From a virus, in the IMG/VR virus record IMGVR_UViG_3300042553_000685: DNA of 64,000 bases. One strand, written 5' to 3'. The number at the start of each line of letters is the position of its first letter. The first letter of the stretch is position 1. Made by a program: the position numbers and the translations under genes. Under the pieces are notes generated by a model, which was given only the letters and a program-made list of their open reading frames with translations, searched no databases and was not told where the DNA came from. This document shows positions 16,575 to 43,153 of the stretch, piece after piece.

Positions 16575-17585
16575 ATGAACGCTACACCACACACAATAAT
16601 ATCTAGACAGGGCGTCGAACAAAATAGAAGACAGTTTAAAGAACAACCCTTCGGGGAAGATTTGGGCAACGACATAACCTTAGAAATGGTTGCTATCCCA
16701 GGGGGAACTTTCCTGATGGGTTCATCGCCAAATGAGAAATATAGTTTTGATGATGAACACCCTCAACATCAAGTAAGTGTCCCACCCTTTTTCATGGGTA
16801 AATACCCCATCACTCAGGCTCAGTGGAAAGAGGTTGCCTCTCGCACAGATTTAAAAGTTGAAAGAGACCTTGATCTCAACCCAGCCTATTTTAAAGACCG
16901 TCCCGATAGTGATCGCCGCCCCGTAGAACAAGTCAACTGGTACGATGCCGTTGAATTTTGTGCGAGATTATCGATACTGACGGGAAGGGAATACCGACTA
17001 CCGAGTGAAGCGGAATGGGAATACGCTTGTCGTGCTGGAACTACTACCCCATTCTACTTTGGGGAAACCATTACAGGGGAATTGGCTAACTATGACGCCA
17101 GCGAAACAACTCCCGTGGGACAATTTACACCCAATGCCTTCGGACTGTACGATATGCACGGCAATGTCTGGGAATGGTGTGCTGATACTTGGCATGATAA
17201 CTATGACGGTGCGCCTAGTGACGGTAGTGTTTGGCTTGATAATAATCAAGAGGAAAATATTGATGGAAAGAGCAGATTCGGCACATATTCTGTCATGCGG
17301 GGCGGTTCTTGGTGCATACATCCGTCTTACTGCCGTTCCGCTTCCCGCAGCAGCCGCGATCGCCGCGACTACTTCAACCTCTACGGTTTTCGGGTAGTCT
17401 GCGTCGACCTTGATCGCGAGGGTGCTGATTCCCCTCGATTTTGGGATAAAGCTGATCGCTTGATGGTGGTGACGGTAGGAGGTGCAGCCCTAGGTGGATC
17501 GATTGCGGGAGTTTACGGTGCGGTTATTGGTGCGATATTAGCGGCGGGCTGCGGATGGTATATTACCTTTAGGAAAGCAAAATGA
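16575..17585 (+). CDS. FGE/SUMF1 (formylglycine-generating-enzyme, C-type-lectin-fold) domain protein with C-terminal Gly-zipper TM segment (336 aa)
   Basis: GGTFLMGS, HQVSVPPFFMGKYPITQAQW, PVEQVNWYDAVEFC, YRLPSEAEWEYACRAGT, FGLYDMHGNVWEWC, RGGSW, CRSA, GFRVV; tail GGAALGGSIAGVYGAVIGAILAAGCGW. Confidence 0.9.
   Translation: MNATPHTIISRQGVEQNRRQFKEQPFGEDLGNDITLEMVAIPGGTFLMGSSPNEKYSFDDEHPQHQVSVPPFFMGKYPITQAQWKEVASRTDLKVERDLDLNPAYFKDRPDSDRRPVEQVNWYDAVEFCARLSILTGREYRLPSEAEWEYACRAGTTTPFYFGETITGELANYDASETTPVGQFTPNAFGLYDMHGNVWEWCADTWHDNYDGAPSDGSVWLDNNQEENIDGKSRFGTYSVMRGGSWCIHPSYCRSASRSSRDRRDYFNLYGFRVVCVDLDREGADSPRFWDKADRLMVVTVGGAALGGSIAGVYGAVIGAILAAGCGWYITFRKAK
17295..17402 (+). other. DGR-variable-region-like 3' segment of FGE gene 1
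   Basis: RGGSW-CIHPSY-CRSA-S-R-SSRD-RR-DYFNLY-GFRVVC: conserved scaffold codons alternate with codons that differ among the three paralogues. Confidence 0.5.
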
Positions 17586-21985: not shown

Positions 21986-22312
21986 TCACACGTAGGCGGC
22001 CTGCTCACTCCTGAAGATATCAAGTAGGGGATCGATAGTAGATCTAAGGCCAGCCATGAGATGGCGAGCTGCATCAGTAGGTAGGCCCCGCCACCAGCGT
22101 TGCACCTTCTCCTGAGCCCAATCGAGGCCCAATCGCGTCATAGTGCACTGTAGTGTGCGCTCAAGCAGGCGGGTGAACTGAGCGAGGGGGCGTATATCAC
22201 CACTATCGGTACCGTAGTGTGCTACCCACTGAGAGGGGTCAGCGATAACCTCAGGATTCTGAGTAGCGTAGGCCAGGAGTTTATTCTCGATGGGGTTAAA
22301 TACAGAAGCCAA
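21986..22312 (-). CDS. hypothetical protein, possibly 5'-truncated by the adjacent IS (108 aa)
   Basis: ORF begins with TTG directly at the compositional break to the IS607-type element. Confidence 0.4.
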   Translation of the reverse strand: MASVFNPIENKLLAYATQNPEVIADPSQWVAHYGTDSGDIRPLAQFTRLLERTLQCTMTRLGLDWAQEKVQRWWRGLPTDAARHLMAGLRSTIDPLLDIFRSEQAAYV

Positions 22313-22365
22313 AAACCTAACTAATATTATCCAAAATTACTCATGACTTGTGCTATAATAGTTCT

Positions 22366-22974
22366 ATGAGTAAGTTAACCATATCGGAAGCCGCTAAATT
22401 GAAAGGTGTAAGCGTATCGACGTTAAGGCGTTGGGAGTCTGAAGGTAAACTAATTCCAGAACGGACTGCTAATGGGCATCGTCGTTATACAATTTCTCAG
22501 TTGCTTGGTTTAAAAGAGAATCTCTCTTATACTGTTGGCTATTGCCGTGTTTCTAGTCATGACCAAAAGAAGGATTTAGAACGTCAAAAAGAAGTTGTCG
22601 AACTGTTTTGCGCTCAAAACGGTTGGCAAGTTGAAATTATAGACGACCTAGGTTCAGGACTTAACTACAACAAAAAAGGATTAAAGCGATTAATTCGGTT
22701 GATTGTTGATAGTAAAGTAGAGAGATTAGTCTTAACTCATAAGGATAGATTACTTAGATTTGGTAGTGAATTAATCTTTAGTCTGTGTGAGCAATTCGGG
22801 ACTGAAGTTGTCATTATTAATCGAACTGAAGACAGTACATTTGAGGAGGATTTAGCACAAGATGTCTTAGAGATTATTACGGTATTTTCCGCTAGATTGT
22901 ATGGCTCTAGAAGCCATAAAAATAGAAAAATCGTAGAGGAGTTAAGAGACGTTGCTACTAGGATTCAAGACTGA
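22366..22974 (+). CDS. tnpA: IS607-type transposase TnpA (MerR-like HTH + serine recombinase)
   Basis: LTISEAAKLKGVSVSTLRRWESEGKL (HTH) and YCRVSSHDQKKDLERQ (catalytic Ser motif); start at ATG 22366. Confidence 0.9.
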   Translation: MSKLTISEAAKLKGVSVSTLRRWESEGKLIPERTANGHRRYTISQLLGLKENLSYTVGYCRVSSHDQKKDLERQKEVVELFCAQNGWQVEIIDDLGSGLNYNKKGLKRLIRLIVDSKVERLVLTHKDRLLRFGSELIFSLCEQFGTEVVIINRTEDSTFEEDLAQDVLEIITVFSARLYGSRSHKNRKIVEELRDVATRIQD

Positions 22975-24124
22975 GTTAAAACTAAATAATCAACAACGCT
23001 CATTATTAGCCCAACACGCAGGAACCGCACGTCATGCTTGGAATTGGGGTTTGGCTTTAACCAAGCAAATTTTAGACCATAATCAAGCTAACCCTGATGA
23101 AAAAATCAAGTTTCCTACGGCTATTGACCTTCACAAATGGTTGGTAGCATTGGTAAAATCAGAGCATGATTGGTATTATCAAGTGTCTAAATGCGCCCCC
23201 CAATGGGCGTTAAGAGCTTTATCCGATGCTTGGAAAAGATGCTTCAAGAAGATAGCCAAACCACCAAATTTCAAGAAGAAAGGTAAACAGGATAGTTTCA
23301 CTTTAGATGGGAGCATTAAAGTTGCTCATCAAAAGATAAAAGTTCCTGTAATTGGTTGGTTAAAAACTTACGAGCGGCTACCCTATGGATACCAGCCAAA
23401 ATCTGTCACTATTAGTAAAAAAGCTAATAGGTGGTTTATTAGTTTTAAGATGGAAGTTGAACAGCAAACAACCAATAAAACTCATGATGTAGTTGGTTGT
23501 GATCTGGGAATTAAATCTTTAGCTACTTTATCGACAGGGGAGACGTTTGAAGGCTCTAAAAGTTATCGTAAATACGAAAAACAATTAGCCAGACTTCAAT
23601 ACTTGAACCGACATAAGGTAAAAGGTTCAAATAATTGGAACAAAGCCCAACGGCAAATAGCTAAACTTCATTTTAAAATAGCTAATATCCGTAAAGATAC
23701 GTTACATAAACTCACCACTTATTTAGCCAAGAACCACGGCCAGATAGTAATTGAGGATTTAAATGTGTCTGGGATGATGGCTAATCACAAATTAGCTAAA
23801 GCCGTTCAGGATATGGGGTTTTACGAGTTCCGAAGACAACTTGATTATAAAACTCAGTTGTATGGTTCGGAATTAATCATAGCCGATAGGTGGTTTCCTA
23901 GTAGTAAAACCTGTTTTAATTGTGGGTACAAGAAAGAGTCTCTATCTTTAACTGAAAGAGTTTTTGAGTGTGAACAATGCCATGCAGTTTGCGGTCGAGA
24001 CTTGAACGCTAGTCTAAATCTAGCTTCTTTGGCGGTGAGTTCCACCGTGTCAGCTTGTGGAGTAGATAGTGCCGACACTACTACAGTGAAGCAGGAAGTT
24101 AACGTCAAATTTGCTCATGAGTAG
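22952..24124 (+). CDS. tnpB: TnpB (OrfB_IS605, RuvC-like + zinc ribbon) RNA-guided nuclease family
   Basis: GCDLGIKSLATLS, IVIEDLNVSGM, CFNCGYKKESLSLTERVFECEQCHAVCGRDLNASLNL; TTG start overlapping tnpA end. Confidence 0.9.
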   Translation: MLLGFKTELKLNNQQRSLLAQHAGTARHAWNWGLALTKQILDHNQANPDEKIKFPTAIDLHKWLVALVKSEHDWYYQVSKCAPQWALRALSDAWKRCFKKIAKPPNFKKKGKQDSFTLDGSIKVAHQKIKVPVIGWLKTYERLPYGYQPKSVTISKKANRWFISFKMEVEQQTTNKTHDVVGCDLGIKSLATLSTGETFEGSKSYRKYEKQLARLQYLNRHKVKGSNNWNKAQRQIAKLHFKIANIRKDTLHKLTTYLAKNHGQIVIEDLNVSGMMANHKLAKAVQDMGFYEFRRQLDYKTQLYGSELIIADRWFPSSKTCFNCGYKKESLSLTERVFECEQCHAVCGRDLNASLNLASLAVSSTVSACGVDSADTTTVKQEVNVKFAHE

Positions 24125-24285
24125 ATTTGAGTAGGTTTAATAGAACGGTCTTGAAACAGTGGGTCATTTGCTGTATAATTGGTTTATTGCGGGTGCGGCG
24201 CAAATGAACCTTGAAAACTCCATAGCGTATGGCCTTTACCACTGGGCGGTTCGAATTAATCTTAAACCCTACTAGGGATTGAAAC
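24125..24285 (+). ncRNA. putative omega-RNA scaffold / right-end region of the IS607-type element
   Basis: Position immediately 3' of tnpB, where TnpB guide-RNA scaffolds are encoded; ends in the repeat-like hairpin at 24249-24285. Confidence 0.35.
24249..24285 (+). CRISPR. solitary 37-nt CRISPR-repeat-like sequence
   Basis: GTTCGAATTAATCTTAAACCCTACTAGGGATTGAAAC has a GTT start, a CCCTA/TAGGG palindrome and an ATTGAAAC 3' handle. It closely resembles 37-nt repeats of cyanobacterial type I-D/III arrays as I recall them. Single copy in the window. Confidence 0.6.
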
Positions 24286-30370: not shown

Positions 30371-30847
30371 TTACCAGTCTGTAACAATCCATTGTTGTTT
30401 TAGGCTATCGAGCCATTCTTGCTCCGTGCCAATAAAACTATTGTTCAAGGCTACTTGATAAGCGGATAGCCCAATAGGGCCCTGTAGTTGTCCACCATTA
30501 ATCCACGCTATACCCGACCAAGTGTAAAGAATACCTTGAATTAGGTAACCATGTCCTATAGAGGGGTTAGTAGGCAGATCGCCTATAGAATTAAGATTAC
30601 CTTTAATTAATAGAGGCGGGCCAGGCGGGCCAGGAAATCCAGGAGGAACATCTTTAAGCACTAATGCACTTAGGCGCTGTTCTCCTTGAAGACTACCTAT
30701 CTTGTCGCGTATACCAATAGCACTGGCAGCCTCTGATAGATTACCTCCACCTATGGCGATGAGGTCGCTGGGCGTATCCGTTATTATTAAACTGGTCTGA
30801 CCCGAATCCGGGATTACTAGAGTAATTGGTGGGCTCATGAGAGACAT
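30371..30847 (-). CDS. tail-fibre-like protein with short collagen-like motif (158 aa)
   Basis: ORF track; PPGFPGPPGPP; first gene of the minus-strand fibre operon. Confidence 0.5.
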   Translation of the reverse strand: MSLMSPPITLVIPDSGQTSLIITDTPSDLIAIGGGNLSEAASAIGIRDKIGSLQGEQRLSALVLKDVPPGFPGPPGPPLLIKGNLNSIGDLPTNPSIGHGYLIQGILYTWSGIAWINGGQLQGPIGLSAYQVALNNSFIGTEQEWLDSLKQQWIVTDW

Positions 30848-31209
30848 CGTTGATTATAATTTACACATACAGGATTAGGCAGGCACTAGGCAGGCATGCA
30901 CTAACTAAAACTATGCGTGGCTAGTTTTATAGCAAAGGCTATTCACACAAAACACAGTCATATTATGACTGACGTTCTAGATTACATCACTATCTATGTT
31001 TCATAGCTAGTTATAATTCCTGCGGAAGGTTTATCTTGTGGCATCCACGACACACTCTACAGCGTGACGGCTTTAGTTGATTTGTCTCTAGAGTTGCCGA
31101 CGGCGAAAGAGATATACAATGTTTACAAAAACAATAACGCCCATTTCAGCGTAGAGGTTATAAAAAGTGGCTATCACTTTTACAGCATTTGGTAACAAGC
31201 AATTAAGTC

Positions 31210-31233
31210 AAAACGGGAATAATTTCCCGTTTT
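31210..31233. terminator. bidirectional intrinsic terminator-like hairpin
   Basis: AAAACGGGAA-taat-TTCCCGTTTT, perfect 10-bp arms with A-tract and T-tract. Confidence 0.55.
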
Positions 31234-31260
31234 ATGTTAACACTAGCATTAACAAAGATT

Positions 31261-31752
31261 ATGAACATATACAAAAGATTGGGCGCAAAAACGGTATCTT
31301 TGGCTAATATGTGGAACGCAAAACCTCCGTTTATCGGGGAAGACGGTAATCCCTGTGAAGAAACTGTAAAATGGGCATTAAACAAACAAGGTTTTGTCGA
31401 TACAGATAATATTAAGTTTGATTCTTGCTGTTATTTAAAAGATGCCTGGACGGATTCTGTTGTCGCTGTCGTTCCTGCTACAGCTACTAGAAATGAAGAA
31501 ACGATCTACTTGCATCCTAGTCTTAGCGGTATCTTAGGGGAGTTTTACGCTGAATGTTGCCGGGTCGATAGTCAAGAAATTATTATCGGACCATATCAAC
31601 CACATCAAATAGAAAAAGCTTTTGATGACTGCATAAAAAAGCGCAAGATGTACTTGAGTACATCAAAAGTAAGTGTATTTATACCAAAGGTGCTAATCTT
31701 GATAAAAGATTTACTTTTTTACATGATGATGGCTGGTATTGCGATGGTATAA
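31261..31752 (+). CDS. hypothetical protein (163 aa)
   Basis: ORF track; start moved to Met at 31261 because 31234 abuts the terminator hairpin. Confidence 0.5.
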   Translation: MNIYKRLGAKTVSLANMWNAKPPFIGEDGNPCEETVKWALNKQGFVDTDNIKFDSCCYLKDAWTDSVVAVVPATATRNEETIYLHPSLSGILGEFYAECCRVDSQEIIIGPYQPHQIEKAFDDCIKKRKMYLSTSKVSVFIPKVLILIKDLLFYMMMAGIAMV

Positions 31753-32089
31753 AAGTTGTTTTTTTGCCTGTTAGTTTTAATTGTCTTCCAGCAATTAAAG
31801 GATTTTTCTATTTACCTCAAGAGTGATTTGCAACTTTATAATCTTAATTATGTTTCTTAGATAAGAAGATTTTGAAGTTTTAAAATCTTCTGTCTTAAAT
31901 ATTGTTAAGTTACAAGATCACTCTCTATCAGGCGTACCGCTGACAAGAATAGCTTTAATCTGTGATAAGCATCCTGAGATAATCAAAAAGCAAGGGATTA
32001 ACAGAAATAATTCTCTCAAATAGTTGATATTTCTGGGAGAATATTGTAAGACAGGATCAAGTAAACAAACACACAAGAGGTAACAAGAC

Positions 32090-33136
32090 ATGACTTCTAT
32101 TAATTTTTACGAAAGAACGGCGCTTATCAAGCGTATCGAAAACAATCTCAATAAAATTAACCAAAGATATTTTGACAAAAGCCACGTGATATTATCAGTG
32201 ACTGATAACGGTGATTACCTCACTGTTAAAAAACAAGGTGTTTACTTAGCAGATTATGACACTCAAAAGCTTTTTGACGCTCTAGAAAATTTTATTGAAG
32301 AAGTTCGGGAGCTTCTTAGTTTTCCTTACGACCTATGGGACTATTTAGATTATTGCAGGTACACGCCAGAAGATCAAAACTCTGACAACTTAAGCAAATT
32401 AGTTGAGGAACTAGAAACAAAAAATGAAATTCTGGAGAAAAAAAATCAAGAATTAGAACAGAGCAAAGAATACAACGAAGCATGGATTGACAACTTAAAA
32501 CAAAAGGTTCACGATTTAGAATCCTCAGTTTGGCTACTGCAACAGGAAAATAAGCGACTAAAAAATCAATCAGAGTTAGGAGTAAAAATGACAATTACAA
32601 TGGTAAAGATACCAGCAAGTCAAGAAATTAAAAGTTTTAGAATTGGCAAATATCCAGTGACTCAGGAACAGTATCAGGCGGTAATGGGAGTTAATCCTTC
32701 CCATTTTCAAGGCAATCCTCAGAATCCAGTGGAAAGTGTTAGTTATGATGATGCTCAAGCTTTTTGTGAAAAACTAAGTCAGATAACAGGGAAAAATTAT
32801 CGCTTACCCACAGTATCAGAATGGGAGTATGCCTGTCGAGCAGGTACAGTTACTGGGTATTATTTCGGAGATGATTATCATCAGTTAAGAGATTACGCTT
32901 GGTATTTTGATAATTCTCAGGGAACAACCCATCCTGTAGGATTAAAGCTACCCAATGCCTGGGGACTGTACGATATGCACGGTAACGTCTGGGAATGGTG
33001 TCAAAAGGATTTTCATCTGCGGGGCGGTTCCTGGGGCAGCCTTTCTACTTTCTGCCGTTCCGCGTTTCGCTACAGCAGCCTTCGCCGCGACGACCGCACC
33101 GTCGTTAGCGGTTTTCGGGTAGTCTGTGACAATTAG
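32090..33136 (+). CDS. coiled-coil + FGE/SUMF1-domain protein (348 aa)
   Basis: N-terminal heptad-rich region (ELETKNEILEKKNQELEQSKE); C-terminal GKYPVTQEQYQAVMG, PVESVSYDDAQAFC, YRLPTVSEWEYACRAGT, WGLYDMHGNVWEWC, RGGSW, CRSA, GFRVVC. Confidence 0.9.
   Translation: MTSINFYERTALIKRIENNLNKINQRYFDKSHVILSVTDNGDYLTVKKQGVYLADYDTQKLFDALENFIEEVRELLSFPYDLWDYLDYCRYTPEDQNSDNLSKLVEELETKNEILEKKNQELEQSKEYNEAWIDNLKQKVHDLESSVWLLQQENKRLKNQSELGVKMTITMVKIPASQEIKSFRIGKYPVTQEQYQAVMGVNPSHFQGNPQNPVESVSYDDAQAFCEKLSQITGKNYRLPTVSEWEYACRAGTVTGYYFGDDYHQLRDYAWYFDNSQGTTHPVGLKLPNAWGLYDMHGNVWEWCQKDFHLRGGSWGSLSTFCRSAFRYSSLRRDDRTVVSGFRVVCDN
33017..33128 (+). other. DGR-variable-region-like 3' segment of FGE gene 2
   Basis: RGGSW-GSLSTF-CRSA-F-R-YSSL-RR-DDRTVVS-GFRVVC; I count only about 10 adenines in ~110 nt in an otherwise A/T-rich gene. 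Confidence 0.55.
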
Positions 33137-33153
33137 TTACTAATCATTTAATT

Positions 33154-33180
33154 ATCAGTTATCAGTTATCAGTTATTAGT
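33154..33180. repeat. STRR-like heptamer tandem repeat (ATCAGTT)3+
   Basis: atcagtt x3 perfect at 33154-33174, then a degenerate unit; intergenic. Confidence 0.8.
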
Positions 33181-33205
33181 GTTCACTCATTATTTAGGAG
33201 TAAAA

Positions 33206-33427
33206 ATGAAGATTCGTATTGAAGGTATTTGTGAGTGCAGTAAAGTCGGTATAATTATCGACTCAAAATATATACTGTACGTGGCTTATATTTACGAAGA
33301 TGTATTGCCTTCGCGACAGTTGGATACGGAAAATCAGTACTATGTAGTTTTTGATCCTATTATTCAACTGCAGCCAATTACAACTACGCTTCAGTTATCA
33401 CCTGAATTGCGTCAATGGAACAGTTGA
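33206..33427 (+). CDS. hypothetical protein (73 aa)
   Basis: Start set at ATG 33206 after TTAGGAGTAAAA RBS. Confidence 0.5.
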   Translation: MKIRIEGICECSKVGIIIDSKYILYVAYIYEDVLPSRQLDTENQYYVVFDPIIQLQPITTTLQLSPELRQWNS

Positions 33428-33430
33428 TTT

Positions 33431-33451
33431 ATCAGTTATCAGCTATCAGTA
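33431..33451. repeat. STRR-like heptamer repeat
   Basis: atcagtt atcagct atcagta; intergenic. Confidence 0.75.
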
Positions 33452-33476
33452 AACAAAATAACTTAGGAGTAAAGCA

Positions 33477-33716
33477 ATGACAATGATAGACATAGGACAA
33501 TTTGCTAAGATTGAGATAAACTGGTACGAAACAAAGTCATATCCGTTTCGATATTCAGAAGGCATTCACTATTTTATCCAAAAGGATCAGGGATGGATAG
33601 TAGATGAAATCGCTAAATGGGTAAGAGAAACTCATTTTAAAAAAGACTTTCCCTCGGTTATCGATTGGAAGTTAAAAGTAACTTATCAAAACTCTAAAGA
33701 TAGGATTCCGTGGTAG
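33477..33716 (+). CDS. hypothetical protein (79 aa)
   Basis: ORF track; TTAGGAGTAAAG RBS. Confidence 0.5.
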   Translation: MTMIDIGQFAKIEINWYETKSYPFRYSEGIHYFIQKDQGWIVDEIAKWVRETHFKKDFPSVIDWKLKVTYQNSKDRIPW

Positions 33717-33782
33717 AATCCAAGTCATTCAACTACACTAACCTGCGAGAATCGCCAAAATGCCGCGTTTAAATTTAGCTTT

Positions 33783-33950
33783 ATGACAGTATTTCCAAAT
33801 ACTGATATTGAGTTATATTACGATGGTGGCCGTATAGATGAAGTTGACTTTTGTTTATTTGATATAGCCGACCCTTCTAAAACGGAATTAATGCTTGAAG
33901 AAGAATGGGTGTATTTACTTGGCGCCGCATCTTTCTTATTTGGTAGGTAA
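33783..33950 (+). CDS. hypothetical 55-aa protein
   Basis: Hand translation MTVFPNTDIELYYDGGRIDEVDFCLFDIADPSKTELMLEEEWVYLLGAASFLFGR. Confidence 0.35.
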   Translation: MTVFPNTDIELYYDGGRIDEVDFCLFDIADPSKTELMLEEEWVYLLGAASFLFGR

Positions 33951-34839: not shown

Positions 34840-35491
34840 ATGAACATTAAACCGCAACTTAAAAGCAGTATTCGGCTATTTTTAGAAGGTTCAGAAGATG
34901 GGCTCCAGCGCCTAGTATATTTACGTCAATCGGGGGAATTGCAGGACCTTCTCAATGAACTTAAACCAGACGATATACCCGAAATTGTTGTCACAAAAGC
35001 AGAGTTCACTACAGATGCAAAAGTTAAAGTCGAGTTCACTACAGATGCAAAAGATTGAAAAAGCTGAATTAATTAAGGCAATTCGAGAAGGAACAATCGA
35101 TAAGACAACTCTACAACAAGTTGATTTAAGTGGGGCTGACCTGATTAAGGTTGACCTGATTAAGGCTGATCTGAGTGGGGCGGACCTGAGAGAAGCTAAA
35201 CTGAGTGAAGCTATCCTGAGTGAAGCTGACTTGAGTGAAGCTGACCTGATTAAGGCTATCCTGAGTGATGCTATCCTGAATGATGCTATCTTGAGTTGGG
35301 CTGATCTGAGTTGGGCTATCCTAAGTGGGGCTGACTTGAATGCAGCTATTCTGATTGAGGCTAACCTAAAAGGGGCTGACCTGAGTAAAGCTAACCTGAG
35401 AGGGGCTGACATTGAAGACGCTATCTTTATCAATGCAACGGGGATCACCCCTGAACAAGAACAGGATTTAATTCGACAAGGAGTAGATTAA
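34840..35491 (+). pseudogene. frameshifted paralogue of the pentapeptide-repeat gene at 56991..57947
   Basis: 34840..35058 encodes the shared N-domain (SIRLFLEGSEDG.Q.L..L.QSGELQ.LLNELK). 34955..35491, in another frame, encodes IEKAELIKAIREGTIDKTTLQQV plus A(D/N)LxG repeats. Relative to the paralogue there is a 30-bp tandem duplication (35002-35061) and a 2-nt deficit before the TGA at 35056. Confidence 0.65.
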
Positions 35492-40093: not shown

Positions 40094-40577
40094 GACTGTA
40101 TTGGCGCTGCCCGCCATTAGACAAGATAGAACAGCGTTACCCTTTGTCTTCCCAGAGTTATCCCTCTATACTCTCCTGAGTATAGAAGATGTCATTCCTG
40201 ACATCACTATTAACGTAGTGGCTACTAGTCCGTGGGCCCAGGGCACACACTATGGCACTATGTATTGGACTGTTCTAGTAGTGCGTTATCAGAACAGTCC
40301 CTTCTTAGTAGTGGGCCGTCGTTACGTGACAGATGGGCTTAACCCTAACGAAACGGCCCTCCGCTACGTAATAGACCAGGACCTCTATCGTACGGCTATC
40401 AACTACGCACTACAGCAGGAGACAGAGGAGGTAGTCTTTACTAATAAGGAGCGGCCCCTCGATAAAGAGAAGGCCCAGGCCTTTCATCGCATCGGGAGTG
40501 AGATACGCTTTATAGAGGCTGATGCCCTCAGCTGCACTATTGGGGACATCAATACATTACTTGATATATTATTATGA
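40086..40577 (+). CDS. hypothetical protein (163 aa, TTG start)
   Basis: ORF track; overlaps both neighbours by a few nt. Confidence 0.5.
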   Translation: MLETVLALPAIRQDRTALPFVFPELSLYTLLSIEDVIPDITINVVATSPWAQGTHYGTMYWTVLVVRYQNSPFLVVGRRYVTDGLNPNETALRYVIDQDLYRTAINYALQQETEEVVFTNKERPLDKEKAQAFHRIGSEIRFIEADALSCTIGDINTLLDILL

Positions 40578-41461
40578 AACATTTAGTTAATCCAGATTCA
40601 GTTAAACCGTTGCAAAAGTTAGAATTGTTATCATTTAACTTTGAGGTGGTGCAAGTAAATGAGAAGGGTGAGCAAATTAACAAAGAGTCAAAGCAGTCCC
40701 AATATTTCAGCCAAGATTTAGACAACGACATCACCTTAGAAATGGTTGCCATCCCAGAGGGAACTTTCCTGATGGGTTCACCACAAGACGAAAAAGATAG
40801 TTACGATGATGAACGTCCTCAACATGAGGTTAACGTCCCCACCTTTTTCATGGGCAAGTATCCCATCACCCAAACACAGTGGAGAGCGATTGCCGCAACC
40901 GCTAAAATAGACATCGACCTAGAGACAAACCCTTCTGAATTCAAAGGGGATGAGCTACCCGTAGAAAGTGTCAACTGGTATCAAGCAACGGAATTTTGTA
41001 AACGACTATCAAGAGAAACAAAACGGGAGTATCGACTACCGAGTGAGGCGGAATGGGAGTACGCTTGTCGTGCTGGAACCACCACCCCATTTTACTTTGG
41101 GGAAACCATTACGGGGGAATTGGCTAACTACAATACTAACAAAACCTACGTCGAGGAATATCGAAACGAAACAACTCCCGTGGGACAATTTCCCCCAAAC
41201 GCTTTTGGACTGTACGATATGTACGGCAATGTCTGGGAATGGTGCGCCGATACTTGGCACGATAACTATGACGGGGCGCCGACGGATGGCAGTGCTTGGA
41301 TAGAAAATGGGGATGATAATCGTTCTCCTCTGCGGGGCGGGGCTTGGTACACCTTTCCGTATCGCTGCCGTTCTGCTCACCGCAACATCGACGCCCGCCG
41401 CTACAGCCGCAGCTTCCTTTACGGTTTTCGGGTGGTGTGCAGTGCTGAAAGGACTCTGTAG
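40574..41461 (+). CDS. FGE/SUMF1-domain protein (295 aa), close paralogue of 16575..17585
   Basis: DNDITLEMVAIPEGTFLMGS, HEVNVPTFFMGKYPITQTQW, YRLPSEAEWEYACRAGTTTPFYFGETITGELANY, FGLYDMYGNVWEWCADTWHDNYDGAP, RGGAW, CRSA, GFRVVC; ATGA overlap with upstream backbone gene. Confidence 0.9.
   Translation: MKHLVNPDSVKPLQKLELLSFNFEVVQVNEKGEQINKESKQSQYFSQDLDNDITLEMVAIPEGTFLMGSPQDEKDSYDDERPQHEVNVPTFFMGKYPITQTQWRAIAATAKIDIDLETNPSEFKGDELPVESVNWYQATEFCKRLSRETKREYRLPSEAEWEYACRAGTTTPFYFGETITGELANYNTNKTYVEEYRNETTPVGQFPPNAFGLYDMYGNVWEWCADTWHDNYDGAPTDGSAWIENGDDNRSPLRGGAWYTFPYRCRSAHRNIDARRYSRSFLYGFRVVCSAERTL
41329..41440 (+). other. DGR-variable-region-like 3' segment of FGE gene 3
   Basis: RGGAW-YTFPYR-CRSA-H-R-NIDA-RR-YSRSFLY-GFRVVC; diverges from gene 1 only at the interleaved codons while flanking DNA is roughly 90% identical by eye. 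Confidence 0.5.
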
Positions 41462-42001: not shown

Positions 42002-43153
42002 ATGATTAACATGAAGGCTCACACCGTATATATGGTCGTGAGGCCATATTCACAAAAGAAGAAGATATTAATGAGGGCCGCTCAGGAAGTAGGGGCCCTT
42101 TATGTAGAGAGCCCTCATCTACTAGAGAATACGATATCGTATCCTAGCTCTCTCTCAGCGCACCACGTGCTAGTAGAAATTAAGAATCAAGAAGAGGCCG
42201 ATCAGGTTATAATGATGGCGGGCTGCCATCACTACGGCGTAGGAGAAATACTATTCAATGCCGAGAGCAGCGTAGGAGCTGAGCTCAGTCATCTTATAGA
42301 ACGGCAGGAAGATATAGCGCTTAGTGTAGAGCAAGTGCCTCACTACACTATGAATGATGAGGCCCTAGTAGTAGGGGATATTCATGGTTGTTACGGCCAT
42401 CTGCGTGCGCTACTTAGAAAGGCGGGCTTCTTATTTGCAGGGGATGAGATTACTCATTACCCCATGCAATTAGTGCTCAATGGAGACCTAGTGAATAAGG
42501 GCCCCAGCTCTGCTGACGTTATTAGATTCGTGTACTCTAACCTAGGTCACCCTGACTTCAAGGTCGTACTAGGTAATCACGAGCTCTATATTATGCAGCA
42601 CATAGATGATGAGAAGCCTATTAGTCGCTACTTCGATTATCTCACTACAGTTAATAGTAATCGCATGCAGCGTAATATGTTCACTGAGATATATAGGAAG
42701 AGTGTGCCCTACCTCGTATCCCATAGTCGTACCTCTGCTGTTCACCACTCTCCTTGCGACTATAAGTATGTAGGTAAGTCTGACCCTATCTCTATACAGA
42801 AGCAGATTCACCTACCCAGTATTCGAGGTCAGGCCAATAAGCAGAATACCAGCGTAGATGAAATACTATATCCGTACTTCAATGGCCAGCCGAACTGGCC
42901 ATTAGTTGTTAATGGTCATGTCACTACTAAGCACCCGCTACTAATTAATAACCGCGCTATGATTGATACAGGCGCCTTCCTAGGCTGTTATCTAACAGCA
43001 GCTCATGTCATGGGCTCTACCTGTCAATTCATATCCACAGAGAATGTGAACTCCGCGCGTAATACTATGCGCCTTAATCCCATTGCGTCTGCAATACAGG
43101 ATGCAAGTAGCGTTAGAAGAAACGTGCCTCATTTGGTTAAGGCTTCAGCCTAG
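42002..43153 (+). CDS. PPP-family (calcineurin-like, lambda-phosphatase/ApaH-like) metallophosphatase with extra N-terminal domain (383 aa)
   Basis: VVGDIHGCYGHL (GDxHG), LNGDLVNKGP (GDxVxRG-like), VLGNHELY (GNHE). Confidence 0.8.
   Translation: MINMKAHTVYMVVRPYSQKKKILMRAAQEVGALYVESPHLLENTISYPSSLSAHHVLVEIKNQEEADQVIMMAGCHHYGVGEILFNAESSVGAELSHLIERQEDIALSVEQVPHYTMNDEALVVGDIHGCYGHLRALLRKAGFLFAGDEITHYPMQLVLNGDLVNKGPSSADVIRFVYSNLGHPDFKVVLGNHELYIMQHIDDEKPISRYFDYLTTVNSNRMQRNMFTEIYRKSVPYLVSHSRTSAVHHSPCDYKYVGKSDPISIQKQIHLPSIRGQANKQNTSVDEILYPYFNGQPNWPLVVNGHVTTKHPLLINNRAMIDTGAFLGCYLTAAHVMGSTCQFISTENVNSARNTMRLNPIASAIQDASSVRRNVPHLVKASA

Follow-up and report, generated by a model that had tools for sequence, protein, structure and literature searches.

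Diversity-generating retroelements (DGRs) are understood as self-contained systems, which serve a phage or a cell to diversify genes of its own genome, be it in cis or in trans. In the Bordetella phage BPP-1, the template repeat (TR), Avd and the reverse transcriptase (RT, encoded by brt) lie beside the target gene mtd, whose product Mtd is oligomeric and a proven protein of the tail-fibre tip. For the bacterial lipoprotein TvpA, the diversifying DGR resides in the genome that encodes the protein. Here, we study gene 2, the second of three genes of the formylglycine-generating enzyme (FGE) family on a stretch of 64,000 nucleotides (nt) from the virus record IMGVR_UViG_3300042553_000685; the whole stretch is called the window in the following. 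The 3' tail of gene 2 was very probably written by DGR-type adenine mutagenesis from a template of the type found in the cyanobacterium Microcystis. Like mtd, gene 2 is a phage gene with a C-terminal variable region (VR) of C-type-lectin fold and the footprint of adenine mutagenesis; unlike BPP-1, its phage group lacks TR, Avd and RT. With TvpA (PDB entry 2Y3C) it shares, as far as sequence comparison tells, the FGE-type C-type-lectin fold, but gene 2 is phage-encoded, no signal peptide was seen in its product, and the protein carries a leucine-zipper extension at the N-terminus. The analogy to Mtd drawn in the initial annotation is supported with regard to a ligand-binding fold of the TvpA/Mtd type (2Y3C being the best match), but not with regard to a self-contained phage DGR as in BPP-1.

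For cyanobacteria, DGRs with C-type-lectin/FGE targets have been described, including remote targets in the same genome; none of these cyanobacterial DGRs was assignable to a prophage (Vallota-Eastman et al. 2020, PMC7517822). According to the portion of the article considered here, cellular DGRs of clade 5 diversify putative antigen sensors in trans within one bacterial genome (Dore et al. 2024, PMC10907252); this portion mentions neither Microcystis nor phage-borne targets. Full-text literature searches on Microcystis phages and DGRs yielded no report of phage-borne targets matched to host templates. As far as the consulted sections of both articles describe these systems, our case resembles them in the AAY codons on a WxxxPxxCRSAxR...GFRVVC scaffold, in the FGE-sulfatase/C-type-lectin (CLec) fold and in the position of the VR at the 3' end of the gene. 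Here as there, one TR serves several dispersed targets matching at non-adenine sites. The plasmid cassette of Microcystis aeruginosa FD4 comprises avd, RT, TR and two targets. The targets in those sections, however, reside in the genome that carries RT and TR, while gene 2 is located on the genome of a lytic phage without DGR parts. It also differs from cellular DGR targets in that it has no kinase, protease or NACHT effector domain, but a coiled coil only.

The initial annotation had described gene 2 as A/T-rich over about 930 nt and as ending in a tail with some ten adenines and a sharp rise in G+C. Our counts agree: positions 32090-33016 contain 341 adenines in 927 nt (37%) at a GC content of 36%, and the 112 nt at 33017-33128 are composed of A 10, C 36, G 35 and T 31 (GC 63%). 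A 100-nt profile stays at about 0.30-0.43 GC along gene 2, rises up to 0.60 at 33000-33099 and falls to 0.33 past the stop codon. Ten or fewer adenines occur in only two of the 63,888 sliding 112-nt segments of the window, both at the gene 2 tail, whose GC content marks the 99.7th percentile of the window. According to the initial annotation, a counterpart of this shift in non-DGR FGE genes of the host lineage would speak against its interpretation. A non-diversified, conserved host FGE homologue of 292 amino acids (aa) with the same scaffold motifs, the tail of which is nearly identical between two Microcystis genomes, shows none: it has 21-23 adenines in its last 112 nt and a GC content of 0.47-0.51 without a jump.

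To find a template, its form was predicted from the phage tails alone as W-N-N-N-P-N-N-C-R-S with AAY codons and scanned for in one genome per prokaryote species. All of the 14 exact matches have asparagine-rich, TR-like translations; 12 are cyanobacterial, the other two stem from a metagenome-assembled genome (MAG) of the Planctomycetota and from an 'uncultured bacterium' MAG. Although these TRs (from Crocosphaera, Floridaenema, Trichodesmium and others) have the expected design, they are not cognate, as they show 7-19 non-A mismatches to the tail. Further TRs were found when up to three mismatches were allowed in the Crocosphaera-containing family. The best template for gene 2 lies on contig 2 of genome G066, which is 100% identical to NZ_CP046974.1, the plasmid p1FD4 of M. 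aeruginosa FD4. There, a complete DGR is encoded, consisting of a 1239-aa target with VR, avd, an ISMae4 insertion, RT (RVT_1, 75 bits), TR and an FGE-family target with VR, in this order.

We compared NZ_CP046974.1 26814-26923 (minus strand) with window 33017-33126 in register, and tails of different length by gapped alignment. Of the 29 adenines in the template, 10 are retained in the gene 2 VR and 19 are replaced (by T in 8, by G in 7 and by C in 4 cases), always at codon position 1 or 2. Among the 81 non-A sites only two are mismatched, both C>T, at 33044 and 33082, which corresponds to 97.5% identity with the p1FD4 TR. The mismatches are thus concentrated on template adenines (hypergeometric P = 4e-12), and the similarity between TR and VR stops abruptly at either end of the VR, the 3' end of which lies 8 nt before the stop codon. 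The two VRs on p1FD4 itself show 0 non-A and 14 A-site mismatches and 1 non-A and 16 A-site mismatches to their TR; the corresponding values for other phage tails are 1/16 for an FGE1-like gene of phage record G001, 3/15 for L018 and 3/18 for Ma-LMM01. Different tails fit different TR variants. Gene 2 has two non-A mismatches to the FD4 variant and 6-10 to four others, the tail of L039 suits the TR of G065 (1 non-A mismatch versus 5), and the tail of L055 suits a TR one codon shorter (2 versus 11). In 89 genomes of the host family, no sequence above 82% identity to the gene 2 tail was found, the top matches being FD4's own VR and TR.

As a side observation on the host plasmids, NZ_CP025929.1 (M. 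aeruginosa NIES-2481) contains at 30665-33792 the part of the FD4 region with the FGE target and VapC at 94.8% identity, with the RT outside the match; possibly, this region is what is left of a DGR, or else a plasmid-borne remote target.

The footprint is not confined to gene 2. When 53 unique FGE sequences of phages are aligned by codons, the body (111 codons) and the tail (the segment between RGGSW and GFRVV) behave in opposite ways: the entropies H1/H2/H3 of the codon positions are 0.43/0.40/0.91 in the body and 1.30/1.14/0.53 in the tail, where position 3 is nearly always C or T. At 49 conserved tail sites the majority base is C (19), G (16) or T (14), and never A. At pyrimidine third positions, the frequency of the minor base among C and T is 0.077 in the tail versus 0.223 in the body (P 9e-5). 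Since NNC and NNT codons are synonymous, selection on the protein level is ruled out as the cause of these fixed third positions, and the pattern is the one that repeated copying from a conserved template of AAC and AAT codons would yield. The inverted variability of the codon positions and the homologous host gene without a shift likewise bear out the earlier remark that codon usage hardly explains the composition of the tail. Together with the A-site mismatches to the host TR, the inversion supports the proposed adenine-specific mutagenesis from a GC-rich template. By its sequence, we classify 33017-33126 as a DGR variable region terminating a TvpA-like FGE/C-type-lectin domain.

A TR and an RT in the phage itself, for which the initial annotation had suggested a search, were found neither in the window nor in five complete or three near-complete relatives. 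The window covers 64 kb of a genome whose full length is probably near 170 kb. Searching it for a TR with blastn (word size 7) and nhmmer recovered tail-like DNA solely at the ends of the three FGE genes, and in 64 related viral contigs all 48 unique tail-like segments lie inside open FGE frames. No match to RVT_1 at E <= 1 occurs in the complete genomes of Ma-LMM01, MaMV-DH01, MaMV-DC, MaMV-CH01 and Mic1, nor was one found in three related contigs that are 91-100% complete. With the RT and Avd of FD4 as queries, tblastn identified nothing in the window or any phage locus, apart from chance matches of Avd at E >= 3.4. Rfam found nothing over 21000-45000. By these searches, the phage appears to encode none of the DGR machinery (RT, TR, Avd). 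The open reading frame (ORF) at 42002..43153, downstream of FGE gene 3, was considered as an RT and rejected, as it encodes a metallophosphoesterase. In G001 (G001:C1:4006-4113), G008 (G008:C1:22957-23064) and G010 (G010:C1:23659-23766), a conserved ORF of 700-705 aa matches positions 5-44 of the RVT_1 model. At 11.4-11.6 bits, this match falls well short of the cut-off and probably reflects another polymerase-like fold.

Homologues of gene 2 are found in cultured phages. By tblastn against phage records, Ma-LMM01, MaMV-DC, MaMV-DL01/02, MaMV-DH01, MaMV-CH01/02 and Mic1 show 60-77% identity over aa 166-348. Ma-LMM01 gp037, MaMV-DC ORF40 and Mic1 gp45 are direct homologues of the FGE domain in this range of protein identity, and differ from gene 2 in that they have no coiled-coil N-terminal extension. 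In the tree of bodies, gene 2-type sequences form a phage-only clade of 53 unique sequences (SH-aLRT, a Shimodaira-Hasegawa-like approximate likelihood ratio test, 99), which includes gp037, the MaMV copies and the Mic1 copy and whose members have differing tails. The nearest host bodies share 71-75% protein identity with gene 2.

From these data we propose the following history. The 110-nt tail would have been copied from an AAY-rich template RNA by an error-prone RT that misreads adenines. Template adenines would thereby become any base and a scaffold of C, G and T would remain, which would explain why the tail is poor in adenine and rich in GC. Type of template, RT and Avd would be those of the DGRs of the host M. 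aeruginosa. In rare episodes, these DGRs would have rewritten FGE genes of infecting phages in trans. Through recombination among the many FGE paralogues, tails once written, and entire C-terminal modules, would afterwards have passed from one phage genome to another. On balance, we lean towards this account of rare writing in phage-resident genes by host DGRs and subsequent spread by recombination, because members of a phage-only clade carry differing tails and because these fit different host TR variants.

A number of observations weigh against writing in phage genomes by host DGRs. One and the same tail is shared by three independent records, namely the window, L020 and L179; a scan of public contigs with the 3' flank of gene 2 gave two further records only. 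Identical DNA extends from 33006 to at least 33158 (153 nt) in all three, and in L020 on to 33284 (279 nt, ending about 150 nt past the gene, in the alignment of window 32632-33284 to L020 6061-6713), while the bodies of L020 and L179 differ from the window at 54 of 374 sites (14%). Since the identity starts about 11 nt upstream of the VR and passes the gene end, and the bodies are diverged, the shared patch is a recombination tract and not a homing tract; the conserved RGGSW-coding stretch may act as the recombination joint between paralogues. Gene pairs with bodies less than 2% apart have tails that are 0.9% apart on average, several pairs with bodies 7-8% apart carry identical tails, and the few tail differences between close orthologues show no enrichment at A sites. 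Of 26 host VR/TR flanks, 16 carry the 3' element GGGAGGACTCTGTAAC, compared with 4 of 47 phage tails. These four are all of the FGE3 type, including FGE gene 3 of the window, and gene 2-type genes, having no such element, may therefore be incompetent targets. For many phage tails, comparison with the five TRs tested leaves 5-27 non-A mismatches, and the FD4 TR is not the exact template of the gene 2 tail, given the two remaining non-A mismatches. In addition, FGE genes 1 and 3 of the window cluster with host genes, gene 3 being sister to one (SH-aLRT 97), such that the tree needs at least three switches between host and phage; its host side is made up of five genomes with 32 unique sequences.

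The gene 2 tail is currently static in the sampled records. Repeated overwriting, as considered in the initial annotation, finds no support for this gene: three records share the tail, and close orthologues exhibit ordinary drift. Identity of tails among orthologues, put forward in the initial annotation as evidence against diversification, is found in the nearest relatives but not in more distant orthologues. In favour of writing in phages, two FGE3-type genes with bodies 8% apart, L006 and L058, share the 5' half of the VR, and their 3' halves show 12 differences at A sites and 3 at non-A sites, a pattern such as partial homing anchored at the 3' side would leave. Downstream of gene 2, no recognisable initiation of mutagenic homing (IMH) site or hairpin was found.

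Much of this would also follow if FGE cassettes or their 3' ends had been taken over from Microcystis with the VR already written by the host, and only drift and recombination had acted since. Tails that are stable among close relatives with normal drift, the recombination tract, the host-like FGE genes 1 and 3 with their switches in the tree, and the missing 3' element of gene 2 are all in line with such a capture. DNA has moved between phage and Microcystis FD4 or genomes of the same family, as judged from insertion sequence (IS) copies of 94-98% identity and a host-type CRISPR (clustered regularly interspaced short palindromic repeats) leader with repeat in the phage. We still rate capture without rewriting as unlikely, although it is the most serious of the alternatives. 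It has to explain why gene 2-type bodies constitute a phage-only clade of 53 with many different tails, and why the best host bodies reach no more than 71-75% protein identity, yet the non-A sites of the tail match a host TR almost completely. None of the 89 host-family genomes holds this tail at more than 82% identity, and replacing the tail alone needs crossovers within 15-17 nt of flanking homology.

That the phage lineage has, or recently had, a DGR of its own, located outside the window or in other relatives, with a host-like template owed to common descent, we consider improbable. Phage-encoded DGRs are the classical case, the window represents less than half of the presumed genome, and G001 is 63% complete; on the other hand, five complete cultured genomes and three relatives of high completeness gave no RVT_1 match, the 48 tail-like segments of the 64 contigs all belong to FGE frames, and the phage tails follow several distinct host TR variants. 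An origin outside DGRs altogether, through codon usage, structural constraint of the lectin fold or chance, is effectively refuted. It could draw on the scaffold residues RGGSW, CRS and GFRVVC, which are conserved and have GC-rich codons, but the host homologue with the same motifs lacks the depletion of adenine and the GC jump, the composition of the tail is unique in 64 kb, its codon-position variability is inverted relative to the body, and the mismatches to a real TR fall on adenines. Compared with these alternatives, rare writing by host DGRs in trans, with recombination thereafter, remains our preferred explanation.

Gene 2 is composed of three parts (Table 1). Pfam FGE-sulfatase spans aa 175-345 (E 1.9e-36), and the gene is assigned to PHROG 18508. 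The closest solved structure by sequence is Treponema denticola TvpA, 2Y3C (E 5.4e-26), with true formylglycine-generating enzymes following at about 1e-8. Across homologues of gene 2, the C-terminal segment is hypervariable. In the coiled coil, every seventh position between residues 101 and 157 is occupied by leucine (L-L-L-L-N-L-L-L-L), and the partner position by V/N/I; Troponin and TSC22 of Pfam match it weakly. The N-terminal coiled coil of the initial annotation is real, but shorter than claimed; about 95 non-coiled residues precede it. These residues gave no match in the Pfam search. An AlphaFold2 model from a 6-sequence alignment (predicted local distance difference test, pLDDT, 41.6) shows a single long helix at 100-161 and, as a hint only, an alpha/beta arrangement of aa 1-95.

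The 15-mer TTAGGAGTAAAAATG occurs exactly twice in the window, within gene 2 and at 33194-33208 before the next gene, against 0.03 occurrences expected by chance. FGE-only paralogues in related phages start at the methionine equivalent to Met167. For this reason we regard gene 2 as a coiled-coil part fused to an FGE cassette; a second, short product starting from Met167 may exist.

Table 1. Features of gene 2, its 3' flank and the other FGE genes of the window (positions refer to the window).
Feature	Position	Strand	Remarks
Gene 2, coding sequence, 348 aa	32090..33136	+	N-terminal part, leucine zipper and FGE/C-type-lectin-fold domain ending in the VR
N-terminal part, aa 1-95	32090..32374	+	near-invariant in the orthologue alignment; without family match
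Leucine-zipper coiled coil, aa 98-161, about 9 heptads	32381..32572	+	heptad spacing of Leu
TTAGGAGTAAAAATG, internal ribosome-binding module, with in-frame ATG (Met167)	32576..32590	+	joint of coiled-coil part and FGE-only cassette; possible second start
FGE/C-type-lectin domain body	32588..33016	+	normal evolution, third codon positions most variable
VR, 110 nt, adenine-poor and GC-rich	33017..33126	+	from comparison with the TR of FD4 plasmid p1FD4
TTATCAG heptamer repeats	33150..33180	+	directly past the gene 2 stop; host-type GGGAGGACTCTGTAAC absent there
FGE gene 1	16575..17585	+	VR 17295-17401 (A 14/107, GC 0.60); best host TR variant with 5 non-A mismatches; groups with host genes
FGE gene 3	40574..41461	+	VR 41330-41438 (A 12/109, GC 0.63); host-type 3' element kept; best host TR variants with 5-6 non-A mismatches

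Taken by sequence features, the gene 2 protein is best described as a presumably oligomeric (leucine-zipper) binder with a variable C-type-lectin tip. Its placement next to a tail-fibre operon, as stated in the initial annotation, finds a counterpart in the divergent upstream ORFs, but weak PHROG matches are the sole basis: ORF 30371..30847 matches tail-fibre families (E 3.5e-10) over a 26-residue stretch, and ORF 28491..29258 matches a baseplate wedge family (E 2e-9). The homologue in Mic1 sits amid capsid genes. By analogy, a role in the virion or as an Mtd-like receptor-binding protein is possible; it may equally well bind its ligand inside the cell or serve as a decoy of the lectin sensors of the host.

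Several orthologues deviate from this architecture. The ranges in L018 (4246-5300) and L021 (10001-11055) are not a multiple of three and contain 17 stops on translation; these may be frameshifted or broken copies, and both were omitted from the orthologue alignment because they gave no clean translation. In the orthologues of L015 (1849-3057) and L016 (65-1273), an insertion of 52 residues separates the N-terminal part from the leucine zipper. For L071 and L072, the N-terminal part was matched over aa 1-157 at 46% identity, and no match to the FGE domain of gene 2 was reported. Many of the 64 related contigs have tandems of two to six short FGE genes. In the relatives L002 (G001; 49-2559), L024 (6464-11378), L015, L017 and L025, the gene 2 orthologue is directly followed by such a tandem of FGE-only genes of about 186-198 aa with tails of their own. 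The tandems resemble a reservoir from which C-terminal cassettes may be exchanged; in the window, none follows gene 2.

Further downstream, tandem heptamers TTATCAG/CAGTTAT recur between the small ORFs after gene 2, and likewise in L039 after 11343. The ORF at 34955-35491 is internally repetitive and matches L020 many times, in an offset, self-like manner. Its identity to G066:C1:3963014-3963791 amounts to 77-78%, and it matches several PHROGs annotated without function.

Upstream, an IS element at 22293-24148 (ORFs 22348..22974 and 22952..24124) is 94-98% identical to multi-copy elements of G054, G055 and G056. Right after it, at 24147-24285, lies a stretch resembling a host CRISPR leader together with one 37-nt repeat, GTTCGAATTAATCTTAAACCCTACTAGGGATTGAAAC, which in G054, G055 and G056 is spaced every ~72 nt. 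Since G054, G055, G056 and G065, all of the same family, have the IS element (copies 94-98% identical) and the 37-nt CRISPR-type repeat in common with the window, these genomes are probably Microcystis, too.

Irrespective of the way in which the tails were acquired, a whole phage gene family, including genes of the cultured Ma-LMM01, MaMV-DC and Mic1, bears the footprint of templates known only in the host. The label 'kinase' or 'serine/threonine kinase' on gp037, ORF40 and gp45, from which PHROG 18508 inherits its name, is unsupported, since the domain searches detected FGE-sulfatase alone. Even under capture and recombination, this annotation should be replaced, and DGR surveys that require a nearby RT miss such targets. 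We tentatively suggest, at somewhat less than even confidence, that a host DGR writes into genes of infecting lytic phages across the boundary between host and virus genomes, and that Microcystis phages, those of the Ma-LMM01 type included, keep 'orphan' variable-lectin genes which are re-diversified in DGR-positive hosts. One possible purpose of such re-diversified lectins is to vary a phage binding protein, another to provide effector-less decoys of the host's DGR-diversified lectin sensors. If host DGRs do write phage DNA, this would be a new route of information flow in the arms race between phage and host, in the ecologically important, bloom-forming and culturable Microcystis, and would be relevant to the idea that the DGR targets of cyanobacteria serve as anti-phage sensors.

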